DNA of 57,673 nt from Emiliania huxleyi CCMP1516. Lineage: Eukaryota. Made by a program: the position numbers and the translations under genes. The notes beneath the pieces were generated by a model. The model saw only the letters and a program-made list of their open reading frames with translations, ran no database searches and had not been told where the DNA came from. This document shows positions 8,844 through 57,673 of the stretch, one piece after another (position 1 is the first letter of the stretch; each line of letters begins with the position of its first letter). The stretch is taken from NCBI RefSeq assembly GCF_000372725.1, contig NW_005201223.1, forward strand, positions 342,657-400,329. Direction: 5' to 3'.

Positions 8844-9344
8844 ATCGCCCTCCCTTGCCCAGCCAAAAGAATTGTGATCTCCTCGTGCGATGCGGGTACA
8901 CCTGGGTCACCCACAAGGCAGCGGGCAGTAAGGGGCCGGAGACGTCCAGGGGGTCAGCCCGCTACCTCGAGCACATCTCAGCGCGCGGGGGGGCGGGGAG
9001 GAAGGGCCGGGGCGGCTTCGGGGGGAGCAGGACGCAGTGGCGCGAAGGCATTCAGTGGCGCGCGAGCGAGAGCGGCGGCGGAGGCGGGGGCGAGCGGTCG
9101 ACGCGGCATGCCGAGGCGCTGCTGCGTGCTGGCGGGGGAGGAGGCGGAGAAGGAGGGCGCTCAAACATCAAAGGTGGGGACGTGTCTGGGACTCTGGGTC
9201 CTCGAACCCGCCCTAGCTTTGCGATCCGTTTTTCTTTCTTTCTTTTCTTTTATGTGTTCAAAGACACAAGTGCTCCAAGTCCGCGGGCCGTTCAGACTTC
9301 AGTTCCCCCACCCGACGACCTCCCCGGATCTCGGTGATTCTTTC

Positions 9345-11988: not shown

Positions 11989-12753
11989 CAACACAAAACA
12001 ATCTAACCGGCCAAACCGGCCAACGCGCCGGTCGTGCACGGCGACAAGGAGAAACCAGAGCTCACCCGGCAGTACAACGAGGGGTACAAGGTCGACCTCG
12101 CGGAACCCCACGCTGGCCCGGGAGGATGCGATGAGGTGAATGAAGTCAAGCTCTGGACGCCCCTCCTCAAGACCTCCTCGGCGGGCGTTGGTAACGCCTC
12201 GAGCGGCGGCACGCCCGCCTCCGTTGGCCACTCCTACGCCTTCGGCAACACCGAAGAGAAGGCCCGCCGCCTAAACATGGGCTGCAAGGCGCGCGGGCAG
12301 CCCGGCCAACCCTTCTCCCACAAGACCGGCCACGGCTACGTCAAGGCGCATCGCGGTTTCTACCACGACGCGATCTTTGTCAAGCGCAACAACTTCAACC
12401 TGCTGCTCCACGAGACGTTCGGCGGCGGCTTCTCGCCCACCGCCGTTCTCAAGCTGCGCCGCCTCGCGCGCAAAGTCGCGCGCGGCAGCGTCGACCGCAC
12501 GGCCTACTCGCCCAAGTACTCGCTCTCTTTTATGTCCCACCATGCAGAGCGCATCTCTCTCTCTGTTGTGCGAGGCGTGAACCGCGCCATTCGCTCTCAC
12601 CTGGCAACCCTGTCTGCACGTCTCGCGCGCGCGTGAACAGCCCCCCCCCCCCCGCAAACTTTAAACCTCCATAAACATCATTTTGCAGGGGCTCCAGGCC
12701 CCAAATGACGTGTGAGTGTTAGATTTGTTTGGTATTGCTAAAAATCTCTCTCT
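11989..12753 (+). mobile_element. 5'-truncated CRE-like non-LTR retrotransposon (restriction-like endonuclease C-terminus and 3' UTR)
   Basis: ORF ending at 12636 with VDL..EVK, HETFGG and RISLSVVRGVN motifs; (TC)n tail; 9-bp TSD CGGTTGGTA at 11980-11988 and 12754-12762. Confidence 0.75.
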
Positions 12754-12923
12754 CGGTTGGTATAGCTTTTGGGATACGAGCGGCATTGCTTGAAAAAGAA
12801 TTTTACAAAACTCCCTCCTAACTGGGCTTTACTGGCGTGTCACTTGAAAAAGAAACAATGCAAGCCCACGCGCCGCTCCTGCTCTCGCCTCCGGTTGCGG
12901 ACTGCAAAGCGCGCCTCTAGTGC

Positions 12924-14736: not shown

Positions 14737-16097
14737 ATCGAGATCTCTGCGGGACACCAGTAGATTTGTTGAGTGGAGATCGTAGATGCCGATCAGAGAT
14801 CTTCCACACACAGCATCTCTCACAAAACTCAGAGATCTTTAACTGAAGATAGAGATCTTGAGCTGCCGCCATCGGCACCTCGAGATCTCAGGCCGGAGAC
14901 GGAGATGTTGACTTCGCGCCAAAGGCGCCTCGAGAATCGTGTAGCCGACTGGAGATTGCAAAATGGCGCGAAAAGAGGGTGGAGATCCGCTTGAAGGTGT
15001 GAAAGGAAAAGAGCATCCCCTTGGAAGGACGTCGATTCCCCCCCCGACACGCCTCCCCCACAAGTCGAGATTGGAGATTGGAGATCGGAGATGAAGATCG
15101 GAGAAGCAAAAACGACGTTGAAGATTGGAGATTGGAGATGGAGATCGGAGATCTGACTGGATCCGGCAAAATATAACGCTGGAGATTTGGAGATTGGAGA
15201 TGGAGATCGGAGATATCATTTTTTATTTTCATTTTTTATTTTTGGCCCGAAGAGCCTGCGGCGCCGGTTTTAACTTTACGGTGTGGGGGAACCATGCGTG
15301 TAGTGAGCTTTTTAAAGAAAAAGATACAGCGGCGTCATCTCCAATCTTGCGTCGACACATCTCCGAGGGCGGCGCAGCCAAGCCCGAGTAGTGGTCTCCT
15401 TGAGGCGCGTCAGCGCCGAGTCCGTGAGGAGCGGCCCCAGCTTGCTGGGTGCGGCCCCGCCGCGGGCCGTACCGAGAATCGCGCAGCGAGTCGGCCGGAG
15501 AGGTTAAAACCGGCGCCGCAGGCTTTTCGGGCCAAAAATAAAAAATAAAAAATCATCTCCGATCTCCATCTCCAATCTCCAATCTCCAGCGTCATATTTT
15601 GCCGGATCCAGTCAGATCTCGGATCTCCATCTCCAATCTCCAATCTCCAACGTCATATTTTGCCGGATCCAGTCAGATCTCGGATCTCCATCTCCAATCT
15701 CCAATCTCCAATCTCGATTCGGGGTTCGGGGGGGGGGGGGGGGGGCTCGAACCTTCAAGGAGATGCGCTATGGATTCATTCACACCGCACATCTCCGATC
15801 TCCGATCTCCAATCTCCCATTTGACCCCTGCCGCCGCCAGCTGCGATCTCCAATCTCCAATCTCGATCTCCAATCTCCGCCCCGGCGGTGGATGCCCGGC
15901 GCGAGGATCTACGATCTGTGTTCTCCATCTCCAATCTCCACCTTTGACCCTGGCAACTGCCAACACGATCCACAATCTGTGATCTCAATCTTTCATCTTC
16001 AACCAAGCCCGACTGTGTGGTAGAATCGGCTAGGATCTCCACTCCTGGTCTGCGATCTCCTGTCTGCGATCTACTACTCTCTCGCAGAGATCTCGAT
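14737..16097. mobile_element. foldback-like non-autonomous element with GGAGAT/ATCTCC micro-repeat arms
   Basis: 15-bp perfect TIR ATCGAGATCTCTGCG; flanked by TAC on both sides; inner ~150-bp inverted repeat, 15126-15274 versus ~15503-15650. Confidence 0.8.
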
Positions 16098-16181: not shown

Positions 16182-16266
16182 GTCTCGCGCGCGCGTGAAC
16201 AGGGCTCCAGGCCCCACAAATGACACGTGTGAGTGTTAGAGTTGTTTGGTATTGAAAATCTCTCTC
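16182..16266 (+). mobile_element. 3' end relic of the CRE-like LINE
   Basis: GTCTCGCGCGCGCGTGAACAGGGCTCCAGGCCCC...GTGAGTGTTAGAGTTGTTTGGTATTG matches 12620-12750. Confidence 0.8.
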
Positions 16267-18734: not shown

Positions 18735-18819
18735 TGAGAGATATTTTTAGCAATACCAAACAACTCTAACACTCACACATCATTTGGGGCCTGGATCCCT
18801 GTTCACGCGCGCGCGAGAC
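18735..18819 (-). mobile_element. 3' end relic of the CRE-like LINE
   Basis: reverse-strand match to 12620-12750. Confidence 0.8.
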
Positions 18820-19727: not shown

Positions 19728-19839
19728 CCTCATCCTCTACACTCTCGTCTTCTGATAAACGCAGTATGGAAGATACAAAGAGACGGAGGAGCAACGAGCG
19801 CCCTGGCGTGAGCCAAAGACACTCTCCCTCAGGTCACGA

Positions 19840-19903
19840 AGAAAGAAAGAAAACAGAGAAAAGGGAGGGAAGGGAGGACGGCACGTCGCCACCACACAGG
19901 GAT
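19840..19903 (+). promoter_or_regulatory. partial copy of the shared upstream module
   Basis: GAAAGAAAGAAAACAG...GGGAGGACGGCACGTCGCCACCACACAGGGAT, ~100 bp before ATG 20005. Confidence 0.45.
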
Positions 19904-20004: not shown

Positions 20005-21879
20005 ATGTTCGCAAAGACCCGCTCGCAGGGCACTGCTCACGAGCAGGAGCGCTCAGTCTCGCCGGCCGTGGTCCTGCCGAGCAGGGATAGCCAGGACGCC
20101 GAGGAAGAGGGTCTGCTAGTCAAAGCAGAACACCTTTCGAGCGGGCTGAGTGGGCGGATGCCGAATCTCTCGCCTTTCCACGCCGGCGTCTGCTGCCTCC
20201 TCTCTGTCCAAAACAGCTCATACGTGCTGCTGCGGCGCTACTCGTCGGGTGTGCTGCACGAGGAGGCGTCGGCGCAGTCGATTCTCGCGGTTGGCGAGGT
20301 GCTCAAGCTGTGCTTCTCGTGGCTGATGATCCTCCGTGAGTCGCCGGACGATCCAGGCGAGGCACGCCTCCACGACAGCGCGAAGCGTGGACCGCGCTGG
20401 TTTGCAGAGACGAGCCTCAAGCTTGTGCGCACGTCAGCAAAGATGGCGGTGCGCCGCGCCCTTGCACGCTCGCGGCCCTCAGCCCGCCGGCCCGCCAGCA
20501 GCCTCGCTGCCGCTCGCACCGGCTGGGGAGCTGGGGCGGGAGGTTGCGGGGTACCTCGACACGCCAGCTCTCCGCCCCCGCTGCCACCGCACCGCCGCCG
20601 CCGCCGCCACTGCCGCCACTGCCACCTCCGCCGCCCAAGCCGCCGCCGCCGTCGCGAGCCGTCACCGATCCGGCCGTTGCCTCCGCCCCCGCAGGTGCCC
20701 GCGCTCATCTTCCTTGGTATGAACCTCCTCTCCTTCGTCGCGCTGGAGCGCATCTCTGCCTCGTCCTTTACGCTCATCCAGCAGGCGACACTTCCGAGAC
20801 ACTTCCGAGACGCTTCCGAGACGCTTCCGAGACACTTCCGAGACCGATGCCAACCCGCGAGCGTCGTGGCCAGGCACCTCTCCTGCCGCTCCTCCATTGC
20901 CTCTGCTGCCGCCCACCCCCCTCCCCTCCCCGCTCGCGCCTTGCATGACCGACGCCCGTCCGCCTGTCCCGCCCTGTCCCCAAGCCCCGCCCACCCCGCA
21001 GACAAAAATCCTCTTCACCGCCGTCCTCTCGCGGCTGCTGCTGCAGAGGCTCCTCTCGCTCGCGCGGTGGCGGGCGATCCTCACCCTCTTCCTCTCGGTG
21101 CTCATCATCTGCCACCAGACGCAGCCGCAAGCCGCGTGCGCGCCGCCGCCGCGGGAGACGCTCGCCACTGCGGAGCACATGCAGCAGGCAGCAGACATGC
21201 GCGAGGCCGTGGCGGGCGAGGGCGGCGGGCCGACGGAGCGGGCGTGGCACGACTACGTCGTCGGCGTGAGCGCTGTCACTCTCGAGGCGATGCTCTCTGG
21301 CCTGAGCAACGTCTACTTTGAGAGGGTGCTCAAGTCGACGGCGCTGTCGTTGTGGGAGAGAAACGTCCAGCTGGCGGGCTACTCTCTGCTCATCTACGTC
21401 CCGATGGCGCAGCACGCTCACCCGGGCGACGGCATGTCCCGCGGCTGTCGTGCCAGGGGGGGGAGCGCCTTCGACCACTCTTCCCTGCAACGTAGGCGAC
21501 ATGCTGCATGGCTGGTCGGGGGTGACGGTGGTGGTCGCGTGTCTCGGCGCGCTCGGCGGGATCCTCATCGGGTGAGCACGAGATCGCGGGGAGATTGCGG
21601 GAGATCGCGGGGAGATTGCGCGCGCGGTTGGGACCAGTTGTTCTCAGGACCAGGGGGTGGGTGGGGTGCCTCTCCTGAAGTCACACGCCTGCTCGCGCCT
21701 CGGCCGTTAGGCTGGTCCTCAAGTACTGCGACTCCATCATCAAGAACCTCGCCCTCTCCACCGCCATCATCACCACGGCCACCCTCGACCACTTTGTATT
21801 CCACGGGCCTATGAACCTGCCAATCATCGCGGCGGCCGGCTCCGTCCTCATCTCGATCATCAACTACACAGACGCGTGA
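20005..21879 (+). CDS. nucleotide-sugar transporter, SLC35A family (UDP-Gal/CMP-Sia-like), spliced
   Basis: GEVLKL, VPALIF..NLL, QTKILFTA, SGLSNVYFERVLK, LWERNVQL, VLKYCDSIIK. Confidence 0.9.
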
Positions 21880-26761: not shown

Positions 26762-26796
26762 CTAGCGCACACGCAAATCGGTTGGTTCCTTCTCGC

Positions 26797-28329
26797 TCAC
26801 TTTCCTCGGCCGCGTGCTGCCGCGGCGGCACGTCCCTCGGCCTTGCGCAGCAGCTTCTTGTTGACCTGCACGAGATCGAGATTGAAGTGGGTGTAGAAGA
26901 CCAGCAGCACAAACACAGCCAGGAAGATTGGCGAGAGGAGCGGGTACTCATATCCCAGGCCGCGCAGGCCGAGGTTTGTGACGTAGACAGGGAAGTCACC
27001 CGTGTAAATGTACGCCAGACGGAGGCACGCATATGACATCGGCCCCCACCAGACGATGCGGGTGGCGTAGAGGGAGCCGAGGACGAGCCGCTGGAAGTTG
27101 AGCAGCGCCTTTGGCCACGACATGGCGGGCGTCTGGTGGACCGCCATCGCGAGGAGCATCATGCCGCCCGAGAAGTGGTTCGTGATGAGCACCTGCGCCA
27201 TGAAGGCCTTGGAGATGCCCGGGCCCGCCATGAGCGCCATCATCTCGAACCCGACGCCAAAGATGTGGTGCGGCACCATCACGTTGTCGATCGCCTTGTT
27301 GTAGCGCGAGATGGTGTAGTCGGCGCCCGTCGGCGACAGGCGCCGGTAGAACATCGCGAGCATGTCGTACGTCTCCCACGCCATGTCGGCGTACATGACG
27401 AAGTAAAAGATCGAGTCGTCGCGGCGGAAGAGGTAGAGCAGCGGGAGCGCGGTGCCGACGAGGAAATGCTCGAGCGCAAAAACGACTTGCCCGAAGCCGA
27501 CGGTGGCCAGGCTGGGCGAGTGCTCGTTGACGAAGTTCCAGTCGTTCATGAAGGGCGCGCGGTACGGGAAGGCGAGGCCCTTCTCGTTGAGCGCGTAGCG
27601 CTTGTGGCACCAGCCGCTGTGCTTGGCATCCCACAGCTCCTGCATGTACGCCATGGCCTCGCGCGCGGCCGTCTCGCGCCGCGCCGCGTCGGACGCCGGA
27701 GGTGCGACGCCGCGGAAGGCCAGGAAGCGGGCAACCTGCTCCTCGCTCGCCTCCATCACCGGCACGTCGAACGGCTGCGACTGGCCGGGCGGGTCGGGCC
27801 ACGGCAGCTGGCTCGGCAGACTGCACTTGGACGCGTCAAAGTGGGTGAAGAGGAGGCGCGCGATGATGCCCGTGGTCCACATGAAGAAGTTGCCCAGGAC
27901 GGCGGCGACCAGGAGCGAGAAGGCGTAGCGGATCGGCGAGAAGTCGCCCACGAACGCCTCGGAGATGGAGAAGCTGCCGAGCCGCAGCTCCGAGCGCGAG
28001 AGCTGGAAGGCCTGGTCGAGGCACTGGGTCGTGATGCACCAGCCGGCGTAGTCGCCGGCCAGGACCATCTCCTTGTTGGGCCACACGCCGGTCAGGGCGA
28101 TGATGCGGTTGAAGATTGCAATGTCGGATTCGAGAGGGTCAAGGCTGGCAAGGGCGGCGAAGACAGCGGCGGCGACAGCGGCGACGGCGGTTGTGAAGTG
28201 GGAGGATACGCTGAGCGAGTGCTGGTGGTTGTCTTTCGTGGCGCGGCAGGAGGCACCGGACGGGGACTTCTGAGCCTTGATGGTCGTGACGAGGGAGGAG
28301 ACGCCGAGTGAGGACCTGGCGATGACCAT
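26797..28329 (-). CDS. multi-pass membrane protein, TLC (TRAM/LAG1/CLN8)-like, copy 1
   Basis: Intronless 510-aa ORF with many TM segments; WETYD, MVPHHIFG and YATRIVWW resemble the TLC pattern. Confidence 0.7.
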   Translation of the reverse strand: MVIARSSLGVSSLVTTIKAQKSPSGASCRATKDNHQHSLSVSSHFTTAVAAVAAAVFAALASLDPLESDIAIFNRIIALTGVWPNKEMVLAGDYAGWCITTQCLDQAFQLSRSELRLGSFSISEAFVGDFSPIRYAFSLLVAAVLGNFFMWTTGIIARLLFTHFDASKCSLPSQLPWPDPPGQSQPFDVPVMEASEEQVARFLAFRGVAPPASDAARRETAAREAMAYMQELWDAKHSGWCHKRYALNEKGLAFPYRAPFMNDWNFVNEHSPSLATVGFGQVVFALEHFLVGTALPLLYLFRRDDSIFYFVMYADMAWETYDMLAMFYRRLSPTGADYTISRYNKAIDNVMVPHHIFGVGFEMMALMAGPGISKAFMAQVLITNHFSGGMMLLAMAVHQTPAMSWPKALLNFQRLVLGSLYATRIVWWGPMSYACLRLAYIYTGDFPVYVTNLGLRGLGYEYPLLSPIFLAVFVLLVFYTHFNLDLVQVNKKLLRKAEGRAAAAARGRGK

Positions 28330-28407
28330 TGTTGCCCTCGGGGCACCTCAAGGATCGGTTGAAAAAGAATTTTACAACCCAGCTCCCTCGTGAAAAAGAA
28401 CCTCATA

Positions 28408-28520
28408 AGGGTGGGCGACGGCTAGCGCACCACACCACTCTCCTTAAAATCCCTGTGTGGTGGCGGCGTGCCGTCCTCCCATCCCTCCCTTGGTTGTCCG
28501 TTTTCTTTCTTTCTTTCTTT
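28408..28520 (-). promoter_or_regulatory. shared upstream module
   Basis: near-identical to 57307-57420 and 40646-40741; ~80 bp before ATG 28329. Confidence 0.5.
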
Positions 28521-28856
28521 AAGACTAAATTCTTGTAGCTCGTCTGCGAGTGTAGCTGGGCGACTACCGCGACGAGCGAGCAAATATGCGAGCCAGCTAC
28601 GACTCGTGCGGACGACTCGCGTCGTCTCGAGACTCTCTCCGGTGCCTCACGCCAGGAGCAAACGCAGCGTCATCACATGCGGCAAGGCTGCCATGGACGT
28701 GTGCGACACGCCGCTTCAAATTCCGAGGCCGGAGGGGGTCATAATATCAATAGACAAAACACAAAAGACGACAGGAGAGTGGAGAGAGAGCGCATCCAGC
28801 ACGCCAAAGCACACGCCTCTAACACACACGTGCCTCTAGCAGACACGCCACGCTGC

Positions 28857-30362
28857 TTACATCCCACGGCCGCGTGCTGCCGCGGCGGCACGTCCCTCGG
28901 CCTTGCGCAGCAGCTTCTTGTTGACCTGCACGAGATCGAGATTGAAGTGGGTGTAGAAGACCAGCAGCACAAACACAGCCAGGAAGATTGGCGAGAGGAG
29001 CGGGTACTCATAGCCCAGGCCGCGCAGGCCCAGGCTAGCAATGTAGTCCGGGAAGTCGCCAGTATAGATGTAGGTGAGGCGAAGGCACGCCACCGACATC
29101 GGCCCCCACCAGACGATGCGGGTGGCGTAGAGGGAGCCGAGGACGAGCCGCTGGAAGTTGAGCAGCGCCTTTGGCCACGACATGGCGGGCGTCTGGTGGA
29201 CCGCCATCGCGAGGAGCATCATGCCGCCCGAGAAGTGGTTCGTGATGAGCACCTGCGCCATGAAGGCCTTGGAGATGCCCGGGCCCGCCATGAGCGCCAT
29301 CATCTCGAACCCGACGCCAAAGATGTGGTGCGGCACCATCACGTTGTCGATCGCCTTGTTGTAGCGCGAGATGGTGTAGTCGGCGCCCGTCGGCGACAGG
29401 CGCCGGTAGAACATCGCGAGCATGTCGTACGTCTCCCACGCCATGTCGGCGTACATGACGAAGTAAAAGATCGAGTCGTCGCGGCGGAAGAGGTAGAGCA
29501 GCGGGAGCGCGGTGCCGACGAGGAAATGCTCGAGCGCAAAAACGACTTGCCCGAAGCCGACGGTGGCCAGGCTGGGCGAGTGCTCGTTGACGAAGTTCCA
29601 GTCGTTCATGAAGGGCGCGCGGTACGGGAAGGCGAGGCCCTTCTCGTTGAGCGCGTAGCGCTTGTGGCACCAGCCGCTGTGCTTGGCATCCCACAGCTCC
29701 TGCATGTACGCCATGGCCTCGCGCGCGGCCGTCTCGCGCCGCGCCGCGTCGGACGCCGGAGGTGCGACGCCGCGGAAGGCCAGGAAGCGGGCAACCTGCT
29801 CCTCGCTCGCCTCCATCACCGGCACGTCGAACGGCTGCGACTGGCCGGGCGGGTCGGGCCACGGCAGCTGGCTCGGCAGACTGCACTTGGACGCGTCAAA
29901 GTGGGTGAAGAGGAGGCGCGCGATGATGCCCGTGGTCCACATGAAGAAGTTGCCCAGGACGGCGGCGACCAGGAGCGAGAAGGCGTAGCGGATCGGCGAG
30001 AAGTCGCCCACGAACGCCTCGGAGATGGAGAAGCTGCCGAGCCGCAGCTCCGAGCGCGAGAGCTGGAAGGCCTGGTCGAGGCACTGGGTCGTGATGCACC
30101 AGCCGGCGTAGTCGCCGGCCAGGACCATCTCCTTGTTGGGCCACACGCCGAACAGCGCTATGAACCTGTCAAATCGGTCGATGTCGAAGACGGACTGCAG
30201 GGCGGTGAGCGCGGCGGAGAAGTCGGGCGGCGGCGCGGCGACGAGGCTGGCAACGACGATGGCGGAGGCGGCGGCGGCGGCGGCGGCAGTGGCGGTCGTG
30301 GCGCGGGAGGAGACGGATGACATGGACTTGGCGCCGATCGAGGAGTGGGAAGTCGAGGCCAT
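28857..30362 (-). CDS. TLC-like membrane protein, copy 2 (alternative start at 30470)
   Basis: 29095-30150 appears identical to 27035-28090; the N-terminus differs. Confidence 0.7.
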   Translation of the reverse strand: MASTSHSSIGAKSMSSVSSRATTATAAAAAAASAIVVASLVAAPPPDFSAALTALQSVFDIDRFDRFIALFGVWPNKEMVLAGDYAGWCITTQCLDQAFQLSRSELRLGSFSISEAFVGDFSPIRYAFSLLVAAVLGNFFMWTTGIIARLLFTHFDASKCSLPSQLPWPDPPGQSQPFDVPVMEASEEQVARFLAFRGVAPPASDAARRETAAREAMAYMQELWDAKHSGWCHKRYALNEKGLAFPYRAPFMNDWNFVNEHSPSLATVGFGQVVFALEHFLVGTALPLLYLFRRDDSIFYFVMYADMAWETYDMLAMFYRRLSPTGADYTISRYNKAIDNVMVPHHIFGVGFEMMALMAGPGISKAFMAQVLITNHFSGGMMLLAMAVHQTPAMSWPKALLNFQRLVLGSLYATRIVWWGPMSVACLRLTYIYTGDFPDYIASLGLRGLGYEYPLLSPIFLAVFVLLVFYTHFNLDLVQVNKKLLRKAEGRAAAAARGRGM

Positions 30363-33385: not shown

Positions 33386-34280
33386 GCTGCTGTTAGCCTG
33401 TTACCTCCGGTCCACACGGGTACTCCCCTAGGTACTCCCGTGTCAGCTCCCGTGCTTAGGTCAACAAGGCCCCACGGTACACGGCGTCTCCACACTAGGC
33501 GAGTCACACATGTGTCGTGATTGGGATCAAAGCGCCTATTGAGCGTCATGAATGAATGTATGTATGTGTATGTTGTCAGCTTTTTGTCGATGCTCCCGGC
33601 GGAGCGACGCATTCGTCTTGGCTTGGGTCTGCTGCGCGCTGCTCCGGGGAAGCTGCTCCGGGGAAGCTTTGTCTCTCTCGCTCTCGCTCGCACTAATTCT
33701 TCCGCGTTGTGTACCTGTGTTACAATCTGTTGCGGGCATTAAGAAAACAGGACCCGCGGCACGCCGCCGTTTCTAAGCCTTTCCACCCACCCCACCCACC
33801 CCACGCCGTGGTTTCATAGCTTCGGTGTTCGTGCGAGGGAGTTTTGTTGTAAAATTCTTAGCTTCGGCCGCACGGCCGGCACCCCAGGTCAGCCGGGATC
33901 TACAGTCTGTAGGAACGTTTAGGTAAAATGACAATAAGGAAGCGCTGGACCGATGTCGCAAGTCCGCAGTCTGCCACCCACTTGGGATGACAGGAAGACG
34001 CACACACCTCCATCCACACCGCCCAGAACACCGCAGACTTGGGCAAAATGACAAGTGCGCGCGCGCGCGCCGCAGGCGAAGAAAAAATTTGAGCGGGGCT
34101 CCTGTTTCACACTCGTGTGTGGGCCCTTTCTTGGTTGGGGCCGCGCCTGCGGCGCTTTGGAAATCGCTTGGTAGGGTTTCTTAATTAATGCCCTGTTTTC
34201 AACAAACAAAATTAATGCCCGCAACAGACTGTAGTCCCAGTGCGCGCCAGTCTTGTGCCTATAGTGTCGCGCGAGGGATA

Positions 34281-34436
34281 TAGAAAGAAAGAAAGAAAAC
34301 AGATAACCCAAGGGAGGGATGGGAAAAGAAAGAAAGAAAACAGATAACCCAAGGGAGGGATGGGAGGACGGCACGAAACCACAAAGAAAGAAAGAAAGAA
34401 AACAGACACGCCAAACGAGGAATGGGAAGAAAGGAC
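34281..34436 (+). promoter_or_regulatory. tandem partial copies of the shared upstream module
   Basis: three units of GAAAGAAAGAAAACAGA..., two followed by TAACCCAAGGGAGGGATGGG; ~90 bp before ATG 34527. Confidence 0.45.
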
Positions 34437-34526: not shown

Positions 34527-35552
34527 ATGCTGCCCCTCGCGTGCGTCCTCGCCACCGTATTCGCTGTGCTCGCCACCGTGCTCGCACTGACGAAGAAGCT
34601 CACCGCTCGCCAACGGTGGAGTCCTCGCGAGAAGACTATCGTGCTCACTGGCGCCTCCTCTGGCATCGGCTCGTCTCTCGCTAGAACCTACGCCGCGCAG
34701 GGAGCCAAGCTCTACCTTGTGGCTCGGAGGCGTGAGGCGCTCGAGGCGGCCTGCGAGGAGTGCATGGCGGCGGGCGCGAGCAGCGCTAAAGCGGTGGTGG
34801 CCGACGTCTCAAGCGAGAGCGGCTGGGATGCGATCCGCAGCGCCATTGGAGACGACACCGTCGACTTGCTCGTGCTCAACGCCGGGCTCTCCATGGGCTC
34901 GCCGTTTGCCTCGCTGAGCGAGCGCAAGGAGGCGATGGGCATCATGAAGCACCTGATGGACGTCAACTACATGGGCGCGGTCGGCGTGCTCGACGCCTGC
35001 CTCGGTGCCATGCGGCAAGCGGAGGGCGGAGTCCGGCTGCTGGTGGTGAGCAGCGTGGTGGGCCTCGTGGCGCCGCCCACCCGGACCGGCTACGCCGCCT
35101 CCAAGTTTGCGCTCAAGGGCTTCTTCAATGCGCTGCGTGTCGAGCTCGGGATGAGTGAGCAGGTGCCGCCCACGATCACGCTCGCCTATCCCGGCGCGGT
35201 CAAGACAAACATCAACCGCGCGCGCCTGCGGGGCGGCGTGGACGGCGGCAGCGGCGCGGTGGACCTCGAGCTCGACAAGAGCATGAGCGCCGACCGCTGC
35301 GCCTCGATCATGGCTCGCGCTCACGCGGCGGGGTGCCGGGATGTCTACTATTCCATCGACGGCACTCGGGTCGGCGCCGTCAAGACGAGGCTCCTCCGCC
35401 ACCTCGCCTTCTTCTTCCCCGCCGGCGCCGACAAGGTGCTCGCAAAGAGCATCGGCGCGATGAGCAAGTCGCGCAGGCAGGTCAAGGGCCTGCTCAAGGG
35501 CGTCGCCAAACTCGTCATCGCCAGCTCTCGCTTCCAACCCACGCCCTCCTGA
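34527..35552 (+). CDS. SDR, DHRS7/11beta-HSD-like, with N-terminal anchor
   Basis: LTGASSGIG, LNAG, VSSVVG, PTRTGYAASKFALKGFFNALRVE. Confidence 0.9.
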   Translation: MLPLACVLATVFAVLATVLALTKKLTARQRWSPREKTIVLTGASSGIGSSLARTYAAQGAKLYLVARRREALEAACEECMAAGASSAKAVVADVSSESGWDAIRSAIGDDTVDLLVLNAGLSMGSPFASLSERKEAMGIMKHLMDVNYMGAVGVLDACLGAMRQAEGGVRLLVVSSVVGLVAPPTRTGYAASKFALKGFFNALRVELGMSEQVPPTITLAYPGAVKTNINRARLRGGVDGGSGAVDLELDKSMSADRCASIMARAHAAGCRDVYYSIDGTRVGAVKTRLLRHLAFFFPAGADKVLAKSIGAMSKSRRQVKGLLKGVAKLVIASSRFQPTPS

Positions 35553-36229: not shown

Positions 36230-37590
36230 AGCTCTAGAGTCCACACCCCCCTGCCCCGGGATCGCGTACAAGCTGAGGCTACCGTAGGCCACACTAGCGT
36301 CGCTGGGGGTTCCCTGCCCTAGATGGGAAGCTGGCCGCTGATCCGAAGACCGACTGCACCAGGGCGCCTAGATATACTCAAGGTGAGCGAGGGTGAAGTT
36401 ACGCCTTAAATGCCTGTCTCTCTACTGTGGACCTTACTCCGAGCTCGACGGCTCCTCCTATTCCCCCACCCCCCCTCCCCCCCCACTCTCTCCGAGTAAG
36501 GGCGTGCGCTACGTCCCCAAGGGGGGGGGGACGTGGGGGGGAGGTGTGACTTTTAGGTTGTAGCGTTTGGGTTTTTGTGGGGCACCCAAACGGTTTCGGT
36601 TTTCCTCCTTGGTGCCCCGAGTAGAGCGCGATCTCCCCTGGAGTCTGTCGCGCCCGTTCTGTCTAAGCTCGAGGTTCAACCTTCCAGTTGATCCTTATCG
36701 GACTGGTGAGGTCTGCCTAGCCGTCGTAGTGTAGTGCCTGGGGTGCGTCTGCGTCGGTGCTACACACACTCGGCAGGACGCTGCTGTAAATCGTTGCTGC
36801 TGGTCGTCGCTGTTTGTTAAACGCGATTTTCGCCATGGTGTTTTTTTATGCTTATGGCAGTAAAAAGAAACGGAAACGTGTGCGGCAGGCGCGGGCTCGG
36901 TCGATATCCCATACTTCGACTCACATCTTCACTGCTGCGGTGTGTGCCCGGGGAGGCGCGGCGGCGGGGTGGATTGAGAAGGTCTCAGAATGCAGAGAAG
37001 CTGCAGGCGTGCAGAGGCGCGCGCTGCAGTTTCTCTGATCGGGCTGCTGGCGGTGTGCGCGAGACGGCGTGGTGAGGCGTGAGGCAGGCTATTGTTGTGG
37101 GGTGCGGGCTGCGTCTAAGCGTATGCGTGCACATGGTGCTGTATGCTGTGTGTGCAGGCAGGCTGACAGGCTGTGCACAGCAGACTGGGCGGATGAGCGA
37201 GCGCGCGTGCGGGCGTGCGTGCGCGCCTGGGCCTGCGCGGTGCCGTCGCACTCGCGGCGCGTCCTAGTACAGCCGCTTGTGGGATGCCAGAAGCAGTCTG
37301 CAGAGCCTGCACAGGGCGCAAAAAGGCGCAGGTGTGCTGGTGAGGTGTGCTGCGGCGCGCGCGTCGCGGCGTGAGTGGATATGCGGCTTGCTCTGGTAGT
37401 GCGAGGGGCGCGCAGCTGGTGCGGGCGGCGCGGGACGGTCATGGGGCGCCAGCACAGGGCAGACGCACATGGCACAGGCTTCTGGGCGCTGCTCGTGTGT
37501 TTGCGTGCGCGCGGGGACGTACGCGCAGTTTTCACGCGGTGTGCGTGGAGAAGGGCATGAGAGGCGCCGGCCGCGCGTGTGTTGTCGTGT
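36230..37590 (+). repeat. non-coding dispersed repeat, copy 1 (~1.4 kb)
   Basis: colinear similarity to ~48490-50090. Confidence 0.8.
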
Positions 37591-37941
37591 GGGAGTTCGG
37601 AGTATGCCCGGAGGGCGGGGTGGTTTAGGGCGACTAGACTTCGCACTGGCGCCGGAGGCCCCAGATATGAAGAAAAGTGGTGAAAGCTTTGAAAACACCA
37701 GTTTCCCCCCTAGCTGATTGCATTCTGGCATAGAGTGGTGTGAGACAGAGCTTGAGTCATCGGGTGCGTGCAGGAGGAGCCTGCACTCGCGCTGCACCGT
37801 CATGCGCTGGCGAGACGGCGGTGCACCAGATACGACCCTTCGCCCTCGGCGCCACACGGACATCGTACGGCTCTACCCTCGCCGAGGGGCCGTCAGCATT
37901 AGGCGGCATTCCCACAGCGCGCAGCCCGCCCGTGCCCGACC

Positions 37942-40385
37942 TCAGCGGCGCGGGCGCGTGGAGGCGAAAACGAGAGCGCTTGTGATCGCCACGCTCGCGA
38001 CGCTGCACGCCAGCACGGCGTGCGATGTGCGGCGGTGCTGCGCCCGGAGCAGCCGCATCTCGTCGGCGAGGCTGCTCACCTGCTCGCGGCGCACGCCCGG
38101 CGTGAGAGGGACGGCGGCGGACGTCTCCTCGCACCCGGTCGATTCTCGGAGAGGGCGCGCGCCTCCCGCTCGTGAGCAGTCGCCGCCTGCGCGAGAGCTG
38201 CGCGGAGCTCGCACCGCAGCGTCTCCGCGCTGAGAGGGCCCTCCTACACGGGGCCGTCTCTCGAGGGCGTGAGAGCGCGCGGGGAGAGCGCGCGGCCGTT
38301 TGCGCCCGCTTGCGCCCGCTCCTCCTCCGCAGAGCCCCGGGGCTGGCCCGGCGCCATCACGACGGCATCGGGCTCGTCGGCGGCGGCCGAGACTGCGCCG
38401 TTGGTCAGCGAGGCGCGGCCGCTGCCGTTGATCACCGACCCAGTCTCCGACGCGTCGCTTCCGGTGCCGGGCATCTGGTGCAGCGCCCCTCGGATGAGGG
38501 CGAGGATGTCGAGCACGCCGACGGGCTCGCCTACGTCTCGCGCAATCTCGGGCAATCTCGGGCAATCTCGGGCAGTCTCGAGGAGCACGCTGAGGGGCTC
38601 GAGGAAGGCGTCCTCGGCGATCCCTCGGCGATCTCTCGGCGATCTCTCGGCGATCTCTCGGCGATCTCTCGGCGATCTCTCGGCGATCTCTCGGCGATCT
38701 CTCGGCGATCTCTCGGCGATCTCTCGGCGATCTCTCGGCGATCTCTCGCCCGACTGCCGCACGACGGGCACGTTGCGATAGCCGGAGCCCTCCAGCTGCG
38801 AGAGCGCGTCGAGCACCGAGGCCGAGACAGGGAGGGTGTGCGGGTCCGGCGTCATGACGGCGCCGACCTGCGGGGAAGGGTCCGAGAAGCTTCCGAGGGG
38901 AAGGGTCCGGTGAGGCAAGCACCGCGGCGGCGGGCAAGGCCTTCGTGTCGCGCGGGTCGAGCCCGGCGGCGATGACGCGGAANNNNNNNNNNNNNNNNNN
39001 NNNNNNNNNNNNNNNNNNNNNNNNNNNNNNNNNNNNNNNNNNNNNNNNNNNNNNNNNNNNNNNNNNNNNNNNNNNNNNNNNNGTCGTGGGAGAGGGCTTT
39101 AGTCGTGGGAGAGGGCTTAGTCGTGGGAGAGGGCTTAGTCGTGGGAGAGGGCTTAGTCGTGGGAGAGGGCTTAGTCGTGGGAGAGGGCTTAGTCGTGGGA
39201 GAGGGCTTAGTCGTGGGAGAGGGCTTTAGTCGTGGGAGCATCTCCAGGACGGCGCCTCGCCGCGCACGAGGACAGCGCCCCTCCTCGCCACCATCACGCT
39301 CGCCGCCTGCTGCACCGACGCCTACAAGAAAAAGAAATACATGCACGAAAAGAAATACACACGCGCGCCGCCTGCTGCACCGACGCCGTCGGGGCGACGC
39401 AGCCCGCCTGACAAGAAAAAGAAACACATGCGGGAAAAGAAACACATGCCTCCGCCATCGCAGCCCGCCTCCGCCATCGCGCAACCCTCCTCCGCTGGAT
39501 CGTCGAGGAGTGAGGCCAGGCTCACCTGATCCGGAGAGACGCTCGAGGTCAGGGCGAGAGGAGGTCGAGACGCGGGCCGCGGGGCGACCGCTCGCCGCAT
39601 GGCCCAGCTGGTGCCCGTGCAGCCCCGCCAGGGCCTCCGAGAGGCACTTTGCCACGTCGAGCAGCCCGGCCACCGAGCCAGCCTACAAGAAAAGAAACAC
39701 GTGCAAAAAAGAAACAAAAGCGCCACGCCGGCCACCGAGCTAGCCTCGTCGAGGACTGGTAGGTGCCTGCGGACGCGGGGAGAGCGGTGTCGCACTCGTC
39801 ATCACAGGGAGTGGGCACGCGTGCCGTGTGGAGTGGGCACGAGGTGCCGTGGGACGGCCGCCGGGCATTGGGGGCCGCTCGCCGGAAGCAGTTGTCCACC
39901 ATAGTGCACAGCGCCGAGGACGCCGTCGCATTCCAGAGCACGGTCTGAGGGTTGCGCGTCATGACGGCCTCGACGGCGGTGGCGTCTGCGTCGCGCCCGA
40001 GCGCCACCACTTTCCGGCACACGTCCGTGTCGGTGACGATGCCGACCGCCGCGCGAGACGACGAGGATGTCCGCACGAGCGCGGCGTCGGCGTTCGCGGC
40101 GGCCATCTTGCGCGCGGCGTCAGAGACGGAGATGCCGGCGTCGATCAGAAGCGCCTTGCGCGGCCGCAGCGCGGCAACGCTGCGCCCCGACCGCTGGGAG
40201 CTGCGGACGGCGCCGAGGTCTATGACCGCCTCGCTGCCAACCGACGCAGTCTCGCCGTTGTTGGACGACCTGCGTGCATCTTGCGACTGCTGGATGATGT
40301 CTCGCAGCGCGCGGCGCGCGTGCGACTTCATCGGCCCGAACAGTATCGCCCGGCGGGACACGAAGCCTGGCTCGGGGCCCTCCAT
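37942..40385 (-). CDS. CBS-domain protein (CBSCBSPB-like) with C-terminal TM, multi-exon, spans an N-gap
   Basis: VGIVTDTDVCRKVVA, VMTRNPQTV, FR/HLPVLD, GLLDVAKCL, VMTPDPHTL..YRNVPVV; hydrophobic C-terminal tail. Confidence 0.85.
38615..38748. repeat. 11-bp intronic tandem repeat (GGCGATCTCTC)n
   Basis: seen directly in the sequence. Confidence 0.95.
39083..39238. repeat. 18-bp tandem repeat (GTCGTGGGAGAGGGCTTA)n
   Basis: seen directly, adjoining the N-gap. Confidence 0.95.
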
Positions 40386-40549: not shown

Positions 40550-40790
40550 GTCCTCCTCCCCCATCCCTCGTTTGCATTGCTGTTTTCTTTCTTTCTTTCT
40601 TTCCACAAAACTCCCTCGCACAACACTGGGCCGCACGGGACTGGCGCGCACCACACACCTCTCCTTAAAATCCCTGTGTGGTGGCGGCGTGCCGTCCTCC
40701 CATCCCTCCCTTGGGTTGTCTGTTTTTTTCTTTCTTTCTTTGGCGCGCACCGCGCACCGTGCGCGCCAGTCCCGTGCCCAGTGTTGTGCA
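40550..40790 (-). promoter_or_regulatory. shared upstream module, here enclosed by ~32-bp inverted repeats
   Basis: 40646-40741 matches 57324-57420; 40618-40651 is inverted at 40759-40789. Confidence 0.5.
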
Positions 40791-42281: not shown

Positions 42282-44158
42282 ATGGCGACAGTCGTAATGA
42301 AAAGCTTCGCACTCGTCGTGCTAGCGCTGGCCGCCGCAGAGGCGCTGCAACTGCACCCCGCCGGCGCTAATGGCGCTGTGCGTACCGCCGGCGCTATTGG
42401 CGCTGTGCGTACCGCTGGCGCGCTGCGTCCCGCCGCCCGTCGCAGCGGCGAAATTCACCTCCTCGACAAGAAGGGCGAGGCGCATAGCACCGTCGTCTTT
42501 CTGCGCCACGGGCAGAGTACGTGGAATGCCGACTCGCTCTTCACGGGCTGGGCCGACGTCGAACTGACGACGCTGGGCAAGAACGAGGCCGCGGGCGCCG
42601 CGGCGACCCTCTGGAAGGAGGGCATCGAGTTTGACGTCGCCTACTGCAGCCGGCTCAAGCGTGCGAGGCAGACGCTCGAAATCGTGCTCAGCATCTCCGG
42701 CCAGGAGGAGGTGCCTGTCAACGCGTGCTGGCGACTGAACGAGCGAATGTACGGCGGGCTGACCGGTCTCAACAAGAAGGAGACGGCCGCCAAGTATGGC
42801 GACGAGCAGGTCAAGCGGTGGCGCCGCTCGTACGACGTCCCTCCTCCCCCGGTCGAAAAGGACTCGCCGTACTACCCGGGCAACAACCCGCAGTACTACC
42901 ACATCCGGGAGGAGGAGCTGCCCCTGTCAGAGTGCCTTAAGGCGCGCGCCCGGGCGGTGGCGGCCGGTGGCGGCGGCGGGCGGCGGTGGTGGTGACACAG
43001 ACCTGCCGCCGTGACACACAGCCCTGCAGCCAAGTGCCTCTCGCACTGGCTCCTCCCTGCCGAGCCATCCTCCCGCGCCGCCTCCTCGCCCTACTACACA
43101 GGACACGCTCGAGCGCACGCTTCCCTACTGGGAGAGCGACATCGTGCCGGCGCTGACCAAGGGCAAGACGGTGCCCGAGATCACCCGAGATCACCCGAGA
43201 TTACGAGCACTCCTCTTGTCGGACGCTCTGTTGCCGTAGCGCGCGCACGGAGAGAGACGAGCGCGCCGTGCGGTTCCGGGGTGCTCGTAATCTCGGGTGA
43301 TCTCGGGTGATCTCGNNNNNNNNNNNNNNNNNNNNNNNNNNNNNNNNNNNNNNNNNNNNNNNNNNNNNNNNNNNNNNNNNNNNNNNNNNNNNNNNNNNNN
43401 NNNNNNNNNNNNNNNNNNNNNNNNNNNNNNNNNNNNNNNNNNNNNNNNNNNNNNNNNNNNNNNNNNNNNNNNNNNNNNNNNNNNNNNNNNNNNNNNNNNN
43501 NNNNNNNNNNNNNNNNNNNNNNNNNNNNNNNNNNNNNNNNNNNNNNNNNNNNNNNNNNNNNNNNNNNNNNNNNNNNNNNNNNNNNNNNNNNNNNNNNNNN
43601 NNNNNNNNNNNNNNNNNNNNNNNNNNNNNNNNNNNNNNNNNNNNNNNNNNNNNNNNNNNNNNNNNNNNNNNNNNNNNNNNNNNNNNNNNNNNNNNNNNNN
43701 NNNNNNNNNNNNNNNNNNNNNNNNNNNNNNNNNNNNNNNNNNNNNNNNNNNNNNNNNNNNNNNNNNNNNNNNNNNNNNNNNNNNNNNNNNNNNNNNNNNN
43801 NNNNNNNNNNNNNNNNNNNNNNNNNNNNNNNNNNNNNNNNGCGAATCACGCGAGATCACGCGAGATCACGCGAGATCACGCGAGATCACGGCACGCGAGA
43901 TCACGCGAGATCACGCGAGATCTCCCGAGAGGCGCTGCCGGGACGCCGAGGCGAGTGCCGTGCCAGCTCCCGTTTGTGTGCAGTGGACAGGGCCTCCCCC
44001 CCCCCCCCCCCCACACCTTGCGTGTTGTGGAGGAGTGTGTGCCTCGCACCTCGCCGCAGGTGAACGAGATCTTCGAGATGGTCGACCGGAACGGTGACGG
44101 CCGAATAGACTTTGAGGAGTTCGTCCAGGCGATTACGGCCGAGAGCCTCCCCCGATAG
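42282..44158 (+). CDS. gpmA: 2,3-bisphosphoglycerate-dependent phosphoglycerate mutase, likely plastid-targeted, possible C-terminal EF-hand (middle hidden by an N-gap)
   Basis: LRHGQSTWN, FTGWADV, WRLNERMYGGLTGLNK, WRRSYDVPPP, SECLK/DTLERTLPYW; last exon 44060-44158 has DRNGDGRIDFEE. Confidence 0.85.
43176..43315. repeat. intronic inverted repeat built from CGAGATCACC units
   Basis: 43176-43210 is the reverse complement of 43281-43315. Confidence 0.85.
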
Positions 44159-48489: not shown

Positions 48490-50090
48490 AGCTCTCGGTA
48501 TCGCGTACTGCACGAGGCTACCGTGGGCCCCGCCTGCGCGCTGGGTGCGACGGTGTATCACTCTCAATTGGGGTTCCCTGCCCTGTCGGGAAGCCTAGCT
48601 CTTAACCTGGGGTCGCTACCTAATGCGGGGCGAATGAGTGATGAAGTTAGTGCCTTGGTGTCCGTTCCCCATGGTGGCTTCCCCTGGTCTCACGACCATG
48701 GAATGAGAGCTCTCACTCCCAGGGTACTCCCGCGTATCTCGGCTCCCTTATCCCCCCCCTCTTCCCTCCCCTTTCTCTCTCCGAGATGACCCGTGCGCTA
48801 CGTGCCTAGGTTCGGTCCTCGGGGAGGGGGGATTGGCGGTGTGTCCTCGCGAGTTGTTTGTCGCTGGACGCCCGACAGCTTCGATTTCCCTCCTTAGCGC
48901 CCCGGGTAGAGCGTGGTCTCCCCTGGAGCCTGCCACGCCCGTTCTGTCTAAGCCCAGGGTTCAGCTTTCCAGTTGATCCTTATCGGACTGGTGAGTTCCT
49001 TCTCGCTGTCAGTGTGACGCCCCGGCAGTCATTGGCGGCGGTGCTACACACACTATGCCTGGATTCGTTTTCTCCAAAGGAGTGTTTTGTTTTGACAAGA
49101 TTTTATGGGCTAGCTATCTCGCAGTACATGCGCACGAGCTTAGCGTATTGTTGCACTAATTTTCGCCATCGTGTTTTTCTTTTATGCTTATGGCAGTAAA
49201 AAGAACTGCGTGCGGCAGGCGCGGGCTCGGTCGATATCCCAGACTTCGACTCACATCTTCATTGCTGCGGTGTGTGCCCGGGGAGGCGCGGCAGCGGGGT
49301 GGATTGAGAAGGTCTCAGAATGCAGAGAAACTGCAGGCGTGGGCAGAGGCGCGCGCTGCAGTTTCTCTGATCGGGCTGCTGGCGGTGTGAGCGCGGGACG
49401 GTGTGGTGAGGCGTGAGGCAGGCTATTGTTGTGGGGTGCGGGCTGCGTCGTTAGGCGTATGCGTGCCTGGTGCTGTATGCTGTGTGTGCAGGCAGGCTGG
49501 CGGTCTGTGCAGCAGAGAGCAGATGAGCGCGCGCGCGCGCTCGTGCGGGCGTGCGTGCGCGCAGCGTGCCACGCGCGCGCCTCGTGCAGTGCAGACAGGC
49601 GCGAGGCGGCAGGGGCGCAGTGCGGAGCACGCGGGCTGAGCTGTGTGTGCAGGCAGGCTGACAGGCTGTGGAGCAGACTGAGCGGATGAGCGCGCGTGCG
49701 AGCGCGTGCGGGTGCGTGCGTGCGTGCGCGCCTTGCGTGGTGCAGGATCTGTGTCGTACTCGCGGCGCGTCCGAAAGGGAACAGCCGCTTGTGAGATGCC
49801 AGAAGCAGTGTGCAGAGCCTGCACAGGGCGCAAAAAGGCGAGGTAGTGCTGGTGAGGTGTGCTGCGGCGCGCGCGTCGCGGCGTGAGTGGATATGCGGCT
49901 TGCTCTGGTGGTGCGAGGGGCGCGTGGCTGGTGCGGGCGGCGCGGGACGGCCATGGGGCAGACGCACATGACACAGGCTTCTGGGCGCTACGCGTGTGTT
50001 TGCGTGCGCGCGGGGACGTACGCGCAGTTTTCACGCGGTGTGCGTGGAGAAGGGCAGGAGGGGCGCCGGCCGCGCGTGTATTGGCGTGTG
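48490..50090 (+). repeat. non-coding dispersed repeat, copy 2
   Basis: colinear with 36230-37590, with an internal duplication of ~200 bp. Confidence 0.8.
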
Positions 50091-50453
50091 AGAGTGCGTG
50101 GTGCCCGAAGGCGAGAAGGGGCCCGAAGGCAGGGAAGAGTCTTCCGCCTCGCAACAACGAGGCTTGAAAGAAACTTCTTTTCTGTTGAAGAAGAGAGAAC
50201 TTGGTGCACTTGGTCTTGGAGCACTTGGAGTGCAGTCGGTAGCCTCACATCCAGGGCCGGGGTGCGGGGAGCTAAGAAGCGCACCCACGGGGCCGGATGA
50301 TCGGGATCGGGTTGCGGGCAAGAGAGCCCTAGCCCTGGGGGGTGCGCGTTCGCAGGGAAAGAAAGGAAGGGAAGGGGCGCGCGGATTTTCTTTTCCGCCG
50401 CTGCCGTCGCAACCTCACCGCACTCGACACTAGGCACGGGACTGGCACTACAA

Positions 50454-52576
<2,123 letters not shown>

Positions 52577-55800: not shown

Positions 55801-57146
55801 CCTGCGTGGCGATGTAGATGGCGCCGAGCCCCAGCGCGCACTCGACGCTCCTGCGGCGGCGGGGCGGGAGCATGTGGCGAGGGCGGTGGCGAGGGCGGCG
55901 GCAGGGGCGGCGGTGTGACGCTCCTGTCGTAGCTGTTGGGCGGGAAGAGCTCGTCGTAGCTGCTGTCGGCAGGGTCGCCGTCCACGAACTGGTTCCAGAA
56001 CAGCGTGTCGTCGCCAAAGAACCGGGTGAATGCGCGCTCCCCGATGACCTGCGCCGCCGTGCTGCAAGTGAACTTGAAGTTCTCGAGGGCCTCGCCAGTA
56101 GTCGCGCTCGTGCGGTCTGCGCACGCCGCACCAACGCCGTCAGCCTGATCTGGCTGGGTGGTGTCGACGAGGAACAAGTCGTACGAGTCGCAGCTCTCGG
56201 CGCAGTAGTTCCTCGCGTCACCCAGCAAGGCGGTGTAGTCCACCGTGGTGTCACGGTACTCGGAGACGAGCAGCTGGCACGCCAGCAGAATCCCAGAGGC
56301 CATCACGTAGTAGACGGACGCGTTCATCGTGGAGAGGGCTGCAAAGATCTTGGTCGAGAGGCGGATGGCCGCGCGCTCGGCGTTGGCGAGGTTGGCATCG
56401 TACCGCTGCAGAGACCTCTCCTCGAGGCCGAGCGACGCGACCGTGCGGATCGACGAGAGCACCTCGGAGGCGACGCCGCCGGCGCCTGCGTACGCGTCGG
56501 CCAGGAGCTTGGTGCGCTGCTCGAGGTAGTAGAGGAGCAGTGAGACGGAAGGCAGGTAGGCGACGATGGCCACGGCGAGCGTGACGAGGGCGACAGCCCA
56601 CGACTCGCGCAGCGAGATGTAGAGCCCCACGGTGATGGACCCGATGGTTGTGAAGATGTTGGCGTTGGATAGGTGAAGCGCCTTCTCGATGTAGACGATG
56701 GACTCACCCATGCGCGTCGAGAGCTCCTGCGGCTGGTTGACGTCGTACCAGCCGACGTCCTGCCGGAGGATCGACTTTAGGTACTCCTTCTTCCAACGCG
56801 TGATCTGACGGTTCTTGGAATAGTCGAGCAGCAGCGCCGCGATTCCTTGGCAGCCGCCAATACCCAGGCCCCAGTACGTCATGTTGACGAGGAGCATGAT
56901 CCCGAGATCATAGTAGTTTGTGGTCGAGTTCAAGTCGAAGAAGTCGGCAAACGTCACCAGGGCGAGGACCTGCAGTGCTCCGAAGCCGACCATAAAGGCG
57001 CAGCCGGCGACGATCAAGAAGGCATCGAACCGAGTAGCAAAGAAGAAGAGCGAACGCAGGAAGGAGCGGCGGCGCTGCTGAGGCGGGTCGTCTGGCGACT
57101 GCCTCGAAGGCGTCTTGCGTCTCGGCTCCGCAGAAGAACTGCGCAT
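52880..57146 (-). CDS. ABCB1: full-size ABCB (MDR/P-glycoprotein-like) transporter, one intron at 55851-55923
   Basis: TMD-NBD-TMD-NBD; GPSGAGKST and GPSGSGKST; LSGGQKQRIAIARA and LSGGQKQRVAIARA; LLDEATSALD; AHRL. Confidence 0.93.
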
Positions 57147-57306
57147 TTTCGGAGGTGGAGCGTGCGGAAGAGAGGTGGGCTCGGTGTGGTACGGTGGACG
57201 CGGCACGGGGAAGCCGTCGGGGCTCGGGAAAGGATGTCGGGCACCAAAGCCGAGAAGCCGTAAAGAATTCCGTCGCCTAGTGCTCCAAGTGCTCCGTCAA
57301 CGTTCT

Positions 57307-57420
57307 AGGGTGGGCGACGGATAGCGCACCACACACCTCTCCTTAAAATCCCTGTGTGGTGGCGGCGTGCCGTCCTCCCATCCCTCCCTTGGGTTGTCTG
57401 TTTTCTTTCTTTCTTTCTTT
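57307..57420 (-). promoter_or_regulatory. shared upstream module
   Basis: near-identical to 28408-28520; ~160 bp before ATG 57146. Confidence 0.5.
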
Positions 57421-57594
57421 CCGTCAACGTTCTTCACCTTCCTGTTGGCTGAGTGTCTTGTCTTGTGGTTCTGTGTGTCGCTCCTGTGTGGCCGTCATCG
57501 CCCGTCCTGCGTCCACCCATACCGCGTTGGTGTCCCAGTCGTTGGGAGAGAGAGATTTTTTATTAATTCTTGTCGTTGGTCGGACTGAGATCTG

Positions 57595-57670
57595 ATTTTT
57601 AGCAATACCAAACAACTCTAACACTCACACGTAATTTGGGGCCTGGAGCCCTGTTCACGCGCGCGCGAGA
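57595..57670 (-). mobile_element. 3' end relic of the CRE-like LINE
   Basis: reverse-strand match to 12620-12745. Confidence 0.8.
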
Positions 57671-57673
57671 CTG

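Follow-up and report, generated by a model that had tools for sequence, protein, structure and literature searches.

Antisense 3' ends of a LINE upstream of protein-coding genes in Emiliania huxleyi, and a possible part for a chromodomain in their placement

The integrase of Tf1, an LTR element of fission yeast, carries a chromodomain. As is proposed for the LINE described here, Tf1 inserts into RNA polymerase II (Pol II) promoters (PMC3553992, PMC4600332, PMC7175516), but it leaves 5-bp target-site duplications (TSDs) by way of its integrase, and the passages on it in these papers describe no fixed antisense polarity. Among LINEs, TRE5 and TRE3 of Dictyostelium are likewise placed by position and not by sequence: a tethered protein brings them to sites ~50 bp ahead of genes, according to the relevant part of PMC5006619. 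Their targets, however, are tRNA genes transcribed by Pol III, which are reached through ORF1 and TFIIIB, and they have neither a chromodomain nor an RNase H. In the sections of the literature considered, site-selective LINEs aim at repeats or at tRNA, rRNA or snRNA genes. The fusion of a chromodomain to a transposition protein, predicted here for a LINE, is known from the chromoviruses, Chronos and CoDi-I. These are LTR elements with the chromodomain on the integrase and, in the passages of PMC5348765 that treat them, aimed at heterochromatin, whereas the present copies lie at promoters. The same passages name only LTR groups as chromodomain carriers and, like passages of PMC4600332, report that the chromodomains of LTR elements send insertion to heterochromatin, away from genes. 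The supplement catalogue of chromodomain-transposon fusions described in part of 10.1101/2021.11.30.470311 could include such a LINE. The accessible portions of the full-text literature searched, including PMC4427930, PMC4640811, PMC6338049, PMC5963040, PMC3708506 and 10.1101/2024.05.26.595999, contained no chromodomain LINE, no LINE polarised with respect to Pol II promoters and no mention of the present family, which may nevertheless be catalogued in Repbase or in subscription journals.

In their coding capacity, the closest described elements are Dualen/RandI of green algae and cryptophytes, which have one very long ORF with the order apurinic endonuclease (APE), reverse transcriptase (RT), RNase H and CCHC motif (PMC5029228, in the passages on these elements). 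The layout is similar to that of the present family's relatives, which in this comparison are 1,900–3,100 aa long, and to the one predicted for the family itself. A SINE partnered with RandI ends in a (CTTT)n simple-repeat tail similar to the (TTTC)n tail found here (relevant passages of PMC3747384). Unlike Dualen/RandI, the present family has no evident restriction-like endonuclease and a predicted chromodomain between RT and RNase H, and the passages on Dualen/RandI report no promoter polarity. L1-clade elements with RNase H (plant Ta11 and oomycete L1), Proto1 and Tx1-like LINEs of the haptophyte Tisochrysis also combine the order APE, RT, RNase H and CCHC with 5' truncation and variable TSDs. 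The present family differs from L1-type LINEs in its (TTTC)n instead of poly(A) tail, in the predicted chromodomain and in the lack of a target consensus. In domain order, it resembles either Dualen/RandI minus an evident restriction-like endonuclease or L1 with an RNase H.

The locus lies in a 57,673-nucleotide stretch of E. huxleyi CCMP1516 (hereafter the window), which is eukaryotic and GC-rich (~63–66% GC). A first-pass annotation had described at 28408..28520 a module of ~100 bp shared by the upstream regions of several genes. On the strand opposite to that quoted there, the module consists of the last five codons of an ORF (RVGDG), a ~95-nt 3' UTR and a (TTTC)n tail. This strand is the element's own sense, as indicated by nested 5' truncations, the simple-repeat tail and TSDs. 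The window copies share a (TTTC)n-ended 3' end and differ in their start points. An exact-pattern scan of metagenome contigs yielded at least 122 matches in at least 120 loci, mostly from two contig series. For the 122 matches among those listed, the 5' extents shared with the module grade without a gap from <10 to >300 bp, and the 10th, 50th and 90th percentiles of copy length are 70, 95 and 197 bp (n = 75, among the matches listed). A common 3' end, 5' truncation and variable TSDs are the marks of target-primed retrotransposition. Seventy of the 120 unique metagenome copies among the matches listed had both flanks and were usable for a TSD test; 22 of them are bordered by a TSD of at least 10 bp with at most one mismatch, compared with 1 of 210 shuffled flank pairs (Fisher p = 6e-14), and 23 have no TSD of at least 6 bp. 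The 28 exact TSDs, 8–15 bp long, are all different, and no target consensus surrounds them apart from T/A at the first base; a sequence-specific target was rejected on this ground. RNA folding of one copy gave a hairpin (z = -2.3), a weak signal that 4 of 200 shuffles equalled.

In L023, the longest metagenome copy, the module (identical at 78 of 79 positions) continues into an ORF of 199 aa. This ORF shares 65–81% identity with database proteins, whose clusters have as many as 482 members. Ten database proteins end in RVGDG, the same peptide that positions 28408–28422 encode ahead of a TAG codon. Owing to this junction and these protein ends, the module is read as the part of a LINE that runs from its final codons through the 3' UTR to the tail, and we are nearly certain that it is the 5'-truncated 3' end of such a non-LTR retrotransposon. 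L023 itself has no tail, and a piece of a second short repeat family (see below) appears to be inserted in frame in its ORF.

The first-pass annotation had placed the module, in constant orientation, upstream of five genes. When the focal region was compared with the window by BLAST, all five sites were recovered with coordinates and polarity in agreement (84–96% identity, E 2e-47 to 7e-9), and, relative to the likely ATGs, each copy lies upstream of its gene and points against it. Distances are given from the gene-proximal end of the copy to ATGs chosen from translations, which are not mapped starts. The focal copy (28408..28520, + strand, 113 bp), with the TAG stop of the element's long ORF at 28423..28425 (+), just after the RVGDG in which the family's database proteins end, is antisense to a gene whose ATG at 28329 is 79 bp away; no clear TSD was found in its flanks. 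The 114-bp truncated copy at 57307..57420 (+) is antisense to ABCB, precedes its ATG at 57146 by 161 bp and lies between exact 13-bp TSDs (57294..57306 and 57421..57433, both +). Upstream of the CBS gene, a truncated copy at 40646..40741 (+, antisense) sits in another short repeat and has a TSD of 10–11 bp (40642–40652 and 40742–40751); an older, diverged 3' end of 43 bp from the same or a sister family occupies 40560..40602 (+, BLAST 84%). The gene-proximal ends of the two CBS copies are 261 and 175 bp, respectively, from the likely ATG at 40385. On the minus strand, three 3' ends are stacked at 34279..34430 (units 34383–34430, 34325–34382 and 34279–34324), antisense to SDR and preceding its ATG at 34527 by 97 bp, with no TSD found in the flanks of the stack. 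A truncated copy of 65 bp (19839..19903, antisense) is separated by 102 bp from the ATG that SLC35 is likely to use (20005), upstream of which it lies, and has a 14-bp TSD with one mismatch. Tail and a few bases at 9207..9250 (+) might represent a degenerate sixth copy (repeat family D18, 65%; BLAST E 0.006). The gene names given earlier stand for CBS, ABCB, SDR and the nucleotide-sugar transporter, whose identity and strand agree with Pfam, but the ORF called TLC, transcribed on the minus strand according to RNA reads, has no Pfam match. A tandem gene duplication (26795–28103 and 28855–30163) with 97.7% identity, differing 5' ends and no Pfam family was also observed; the module is present upstream of its first copy only.

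To examine the position of the element relative to genes, 3,408 codons of the window were used to train a codon model, which was then run on the 900-bp flanks of the metagenome copies. On the element's 5' side (n = 45, among the matches listed), 29 flanks contain a gene running away on the opposite strand, one has the reverse arrangement, two are ambiguous and 13 have no gene; on its 3' side (n = 56, among the matches listed), the genes run away in 10 and toward the element in 17 flanks, two being ambiguous and 27 without a gene. This contrast in polarity between the two sides is significant (Fisher p = 1.1e-6). The coding signal begins at a median of 213 bp from the 5' junction (range 48–682, among the matches listed). 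Pfam searches with the best ORF on each strand of the 45 5' flanks found 17 matches on the opposite and one on the same strand, with 27 flanks unmatched (among the matches listed); the 5' flank of locus L045 shows the opposite arrangement by both the codon model and Pfam. No two of the tested 5' flanks come from one locus, and no metagenome locus overlaps a window gene, among the matches listed. Random placement and orientation, which had been named earlier as the outcome speaking against a link with gene starts, were not found in the metagenome sample (29 against 1 by the codon model, 17 against 1 by Pfam). LINE copies sit just upstream of the starts of protein-coding genes, in antisense orientation. 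Of the proposed promoter-targeting mobile element, position and polarity are thus retained in the metagenome copies, but its assignment as a MITE or classical SINE is not, since the module is contiguous with an ORF and represents the truncated 3' part of a LINE that is probably autonomous.

From the family to which the module belongs, the C-terminal ~1,240 aa were recovered (P0024 and P0015). P0015, a member of 1,084 aa, contains an RNase H and a CCHC-like motif (CxxC...H...C). The RNase H was identified by its motifs and by Foldseek, whose top rows are all RNase H (best E 4e-5) for a model with a mean pLDDT of 50. Relatives at 28–36% identity are 1,100–3,100 aa long, and most have an APE and/or an RT with Y/F-ADD; RNase H and CCHC follow the RT, as is characteristic of Dualen/RandI. 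The best PDB match of the relatives' profile is human L1 ORF2p (E 1.8e-14), followed by R2 (6e-11), L1 and R2 being the only PDB references; the former match expresses a likeness of the relatives to L1-clade LINEs. Walking upstream did not recover the RT and APE of the module's own family, which were seen only in the 28–36% relatives, and we infer from these that both domains are present in the family as well. A restriction-like endonuclease after the CCHC motif yielded neither a Pfam match nor such an Atlas cluster, and the region in question gives an all-helical, low-confidence model with zf-RVT as nearest named Atlas cluster (0.84), so that this enzyme appears rather to be absent from the family's C-terminus. 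LINEs with ribosome-skipping signals have a 2A-like peptide before the APE. A peptide of this kind, ending in ERHPGP, precedes the APE in the relatives P0043 and P0058; the scan of the remaining relatives showed none.

A motif scan revealed, in 11 of 14 proteins, a short conserved chromodomain-like stretch that lies between RT and RNase H. A profile built from seven relatives, with the module's own family excluded, finds residues 62–114 of P0015 at 26.6 bits, and chromodomain proteins account for 48 of the 51 PDB rows that it matches (best E 1.2e-8). For one relative, modelled with AlphaFold at a pLDDT of 80, all 40 Foldseek rows listed are chromodomains, at E 0.013 or worse. For the family's own stretch, Atlas placed Chromo clusters at ranks 9 and 23, which serve as leads only; Pfam had no match to the family's chromodomain fragment, and its Chromo model matches one of the seven relatives below cut-off. 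With both a three-strand-plus-helix fold in the model and a matching sequence profile, the predicted chromodomain fold in the LINE protein is well supported. The positions compared by eye are what we take to be the three-residue aromatic methyl-lysine cage of HP1; one of the three, a Trp, is kept in the module's family, and all three appear to be kept in the relative P0043. With a single cage residue retained, canonical methyl-lysine reading by the family's chromodomain is doubtful.

The TSDs reveal no preference for any sequence, yet both position and strand are restricted. The simplest explanation is that some polar landmark located at the start of the gene determines the insertion site. Our preferred reading, to which we assign a probability of about two in three, is that the LINE copies reach their promoter-proximal antisense position through a protein tethered to promoter chromatin, possibly by the chromodomain. 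Judged on its own and from standing copies, active polar targeting of promoters by the LINE is probable; that the chromodomain is the tether is possible, but the odds are somewhat against it. In the proposed sequence of events, a protein-RNA complex of the LINE would be tethered to promoter chromatin, its endonuclease would nick the non-template strand of the gene upstream of the start, this being the first nick needed for an antisense insertion, and reverse transcription would be primed at the (UUUC)n tail, a target-primed mode assumed from established LINE biology. Synthesis of cDNA would usually abort within 100–200 nt and leave a short antisense stub, comparable to the median copy of 95 bp.

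The module could instead be a SINE or MITE of ~114 bp with ends of its own, in line with two window copies that start at the same base (28408 and 57307), but metagenome copies pass this base and continue into the ORF in an uninterrupted ladder; ARAGORN and Rfam found no tRNA or Rfam match to the module, and its copies have no terminal inverted repeats, but a simple-repeat tail and TSDs of variable length instead. The continuity with the ORF refutes this reading, barring a non-autonomous derivative, among the long copies, that has a separate 5' head, and we regard it as extremely improbable. The module might also have been retained because its antisense strand serves host genes as a portable promoter or 5'-UTR cassette. 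In the one stranded poly(A) run used, in which the first mate represents the RNA strand (ABCB reads are only on minus), module reads, taken genome-wide, are 6–12 times commoner in gene-sense direction (mean depth 1300 vs 111 and 1179 vs 200), and many of these gene-sense reads continue into longer element sequence; host transcripts therefore often contain the element, in their 5' or 3' UTRs. These reads, antisense to the element, may, however, derive from the 3' UTRs of upstream tandem genes, the copies are cut at arbitrary points, no pile-up of read starts is listed, and the ABCB reads stop near 57237, ~70 bp short of the copy, with zero depth at 57238–57289. The varying copy lengths and this early end of the ABCB reads also speak against the shared leader suggested in the first-pass annotation. 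In addition, the sequence ahead of ABCB is a different one in the contigs of two strains. At 57242–57244, contigs from three DNA runs depart from the window, and 78 unlike bases follow in two of them, which suggests that the ABCB promoter (57242–57306) is structurally polymorphic. No joint skipping the ABCB copy is listed among the DNA-run contigs at 56900–57673, where the tail of the copy is masked. Taken together, a role as cassette seems quite improbable.

Insertion could also occur without preference, or into open DNA in both directions, with selection removing coding copies and sense copies near gene starts. The data are compatible with this in that only standing copies were examined, with neither de novo insertions nor a clean empty site seen, and in that the genome is gene-dense with short intergenic DNA. 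Selection nevertheless fails to account for copies that hug the 5' and not the 3' ends of genes (29:1 vs 10:17), and the second short family persists at the same promoters mostly in gene-sense direction (21 of 25 flank matches are opposite to the main family, among the matches listed), so that sense inserts are not simply purged; we consider this reading improbable. It is less easy to set aside that the targeting is real and the chromodomain incidental, recruitment being achieved by a promoter DNA-binding factor or by an A/T-rich tract containing AAGAATT; LINE identity and targeting are common to this reading and to the preferred one, and the tether alone differs. Within 150 bp of the 5' junction, 23 of 73 flanks carry AAGAATT on the strand of the element and 2 of 73 on the other (among the matches listed), the aromatic cage is degenerate, and guidance of Tf1 by Sap1 is described in a passage of PMC7175516. 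On the other hand, the motif is missing from 50 of the 73 flanks and elsewhere lies at anything between 10 and 147 bp, the signal is in part the 3' end, and apparently the target, of the second short family, and the chromodomain-like stretch is kept in most of the proteins scanned. We therefore regard an incidental chromodomain as unlikely, though it is the strongest of these alternatives.

If the preferred reading of a tethered LINE is true, a chromodomain LINE that keeps to one orientation and lands 50–300 bp ahead of protein-coding genes would represent a new way of choosing safe sites, and would offer a testable model for how target-primed insertion acquires strand. With copies at five gene starts in 58 kb, promoter polymorphism in this abundant marine alga may have the family as a main source, and fragments of the element could be taken for promoter motifs. 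More tentatively still than the role of the chromodomain as tether, one may envisage an as yet undescribed marine-algal lineage of chromodomain LINEs with Tf1-like, strictly strand-polar targeting of Pol II promoters via the chromodomain. This lineage, jointly with a sister family that has the reverse polarity, would have rewritten a large part of the organism's core promoters in a strain-variable manner.

The second short family occurs in the window at 33825–33860, 28365–28395, 12790–12850 and 40603–40645 and in the metagenome loci L027, L032, L059, L064, L095, L109 and L120. It has a 5' truncation ladder of its own and TSDs that start with a TTCT-like tract, and it possibly stems from the 3' end of a further LINE that targets a AATTCTTT tract. 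For a third high-copy repeat (57446–57549), most RNA reads fall on the repeat's own strand; a tail of (TCAA)n or (CTAC)n is suggested by loose read ends, and this repeat is possibly another LINE 3' end. A fourth, of ~80 bp, is intergenic and found in both orientations (57594–57671, 18743–18819, 16182–16266 and 12689–12752). The window has four N gaps (17128, 38983, 43316 and 44812). A long imperfect inverted repeat with 61-bp tandem units inside spans 14996–15786, and a dispersed repeat of ~1 kb (36595–37614 and 48880–50111; 80–89% identity) is transcribed. Tandem arrays with units of 10–11 bp, probably intronic, lie within genes at 20765–20866, 38580–38777, 43162–43940 and 51117–52115.
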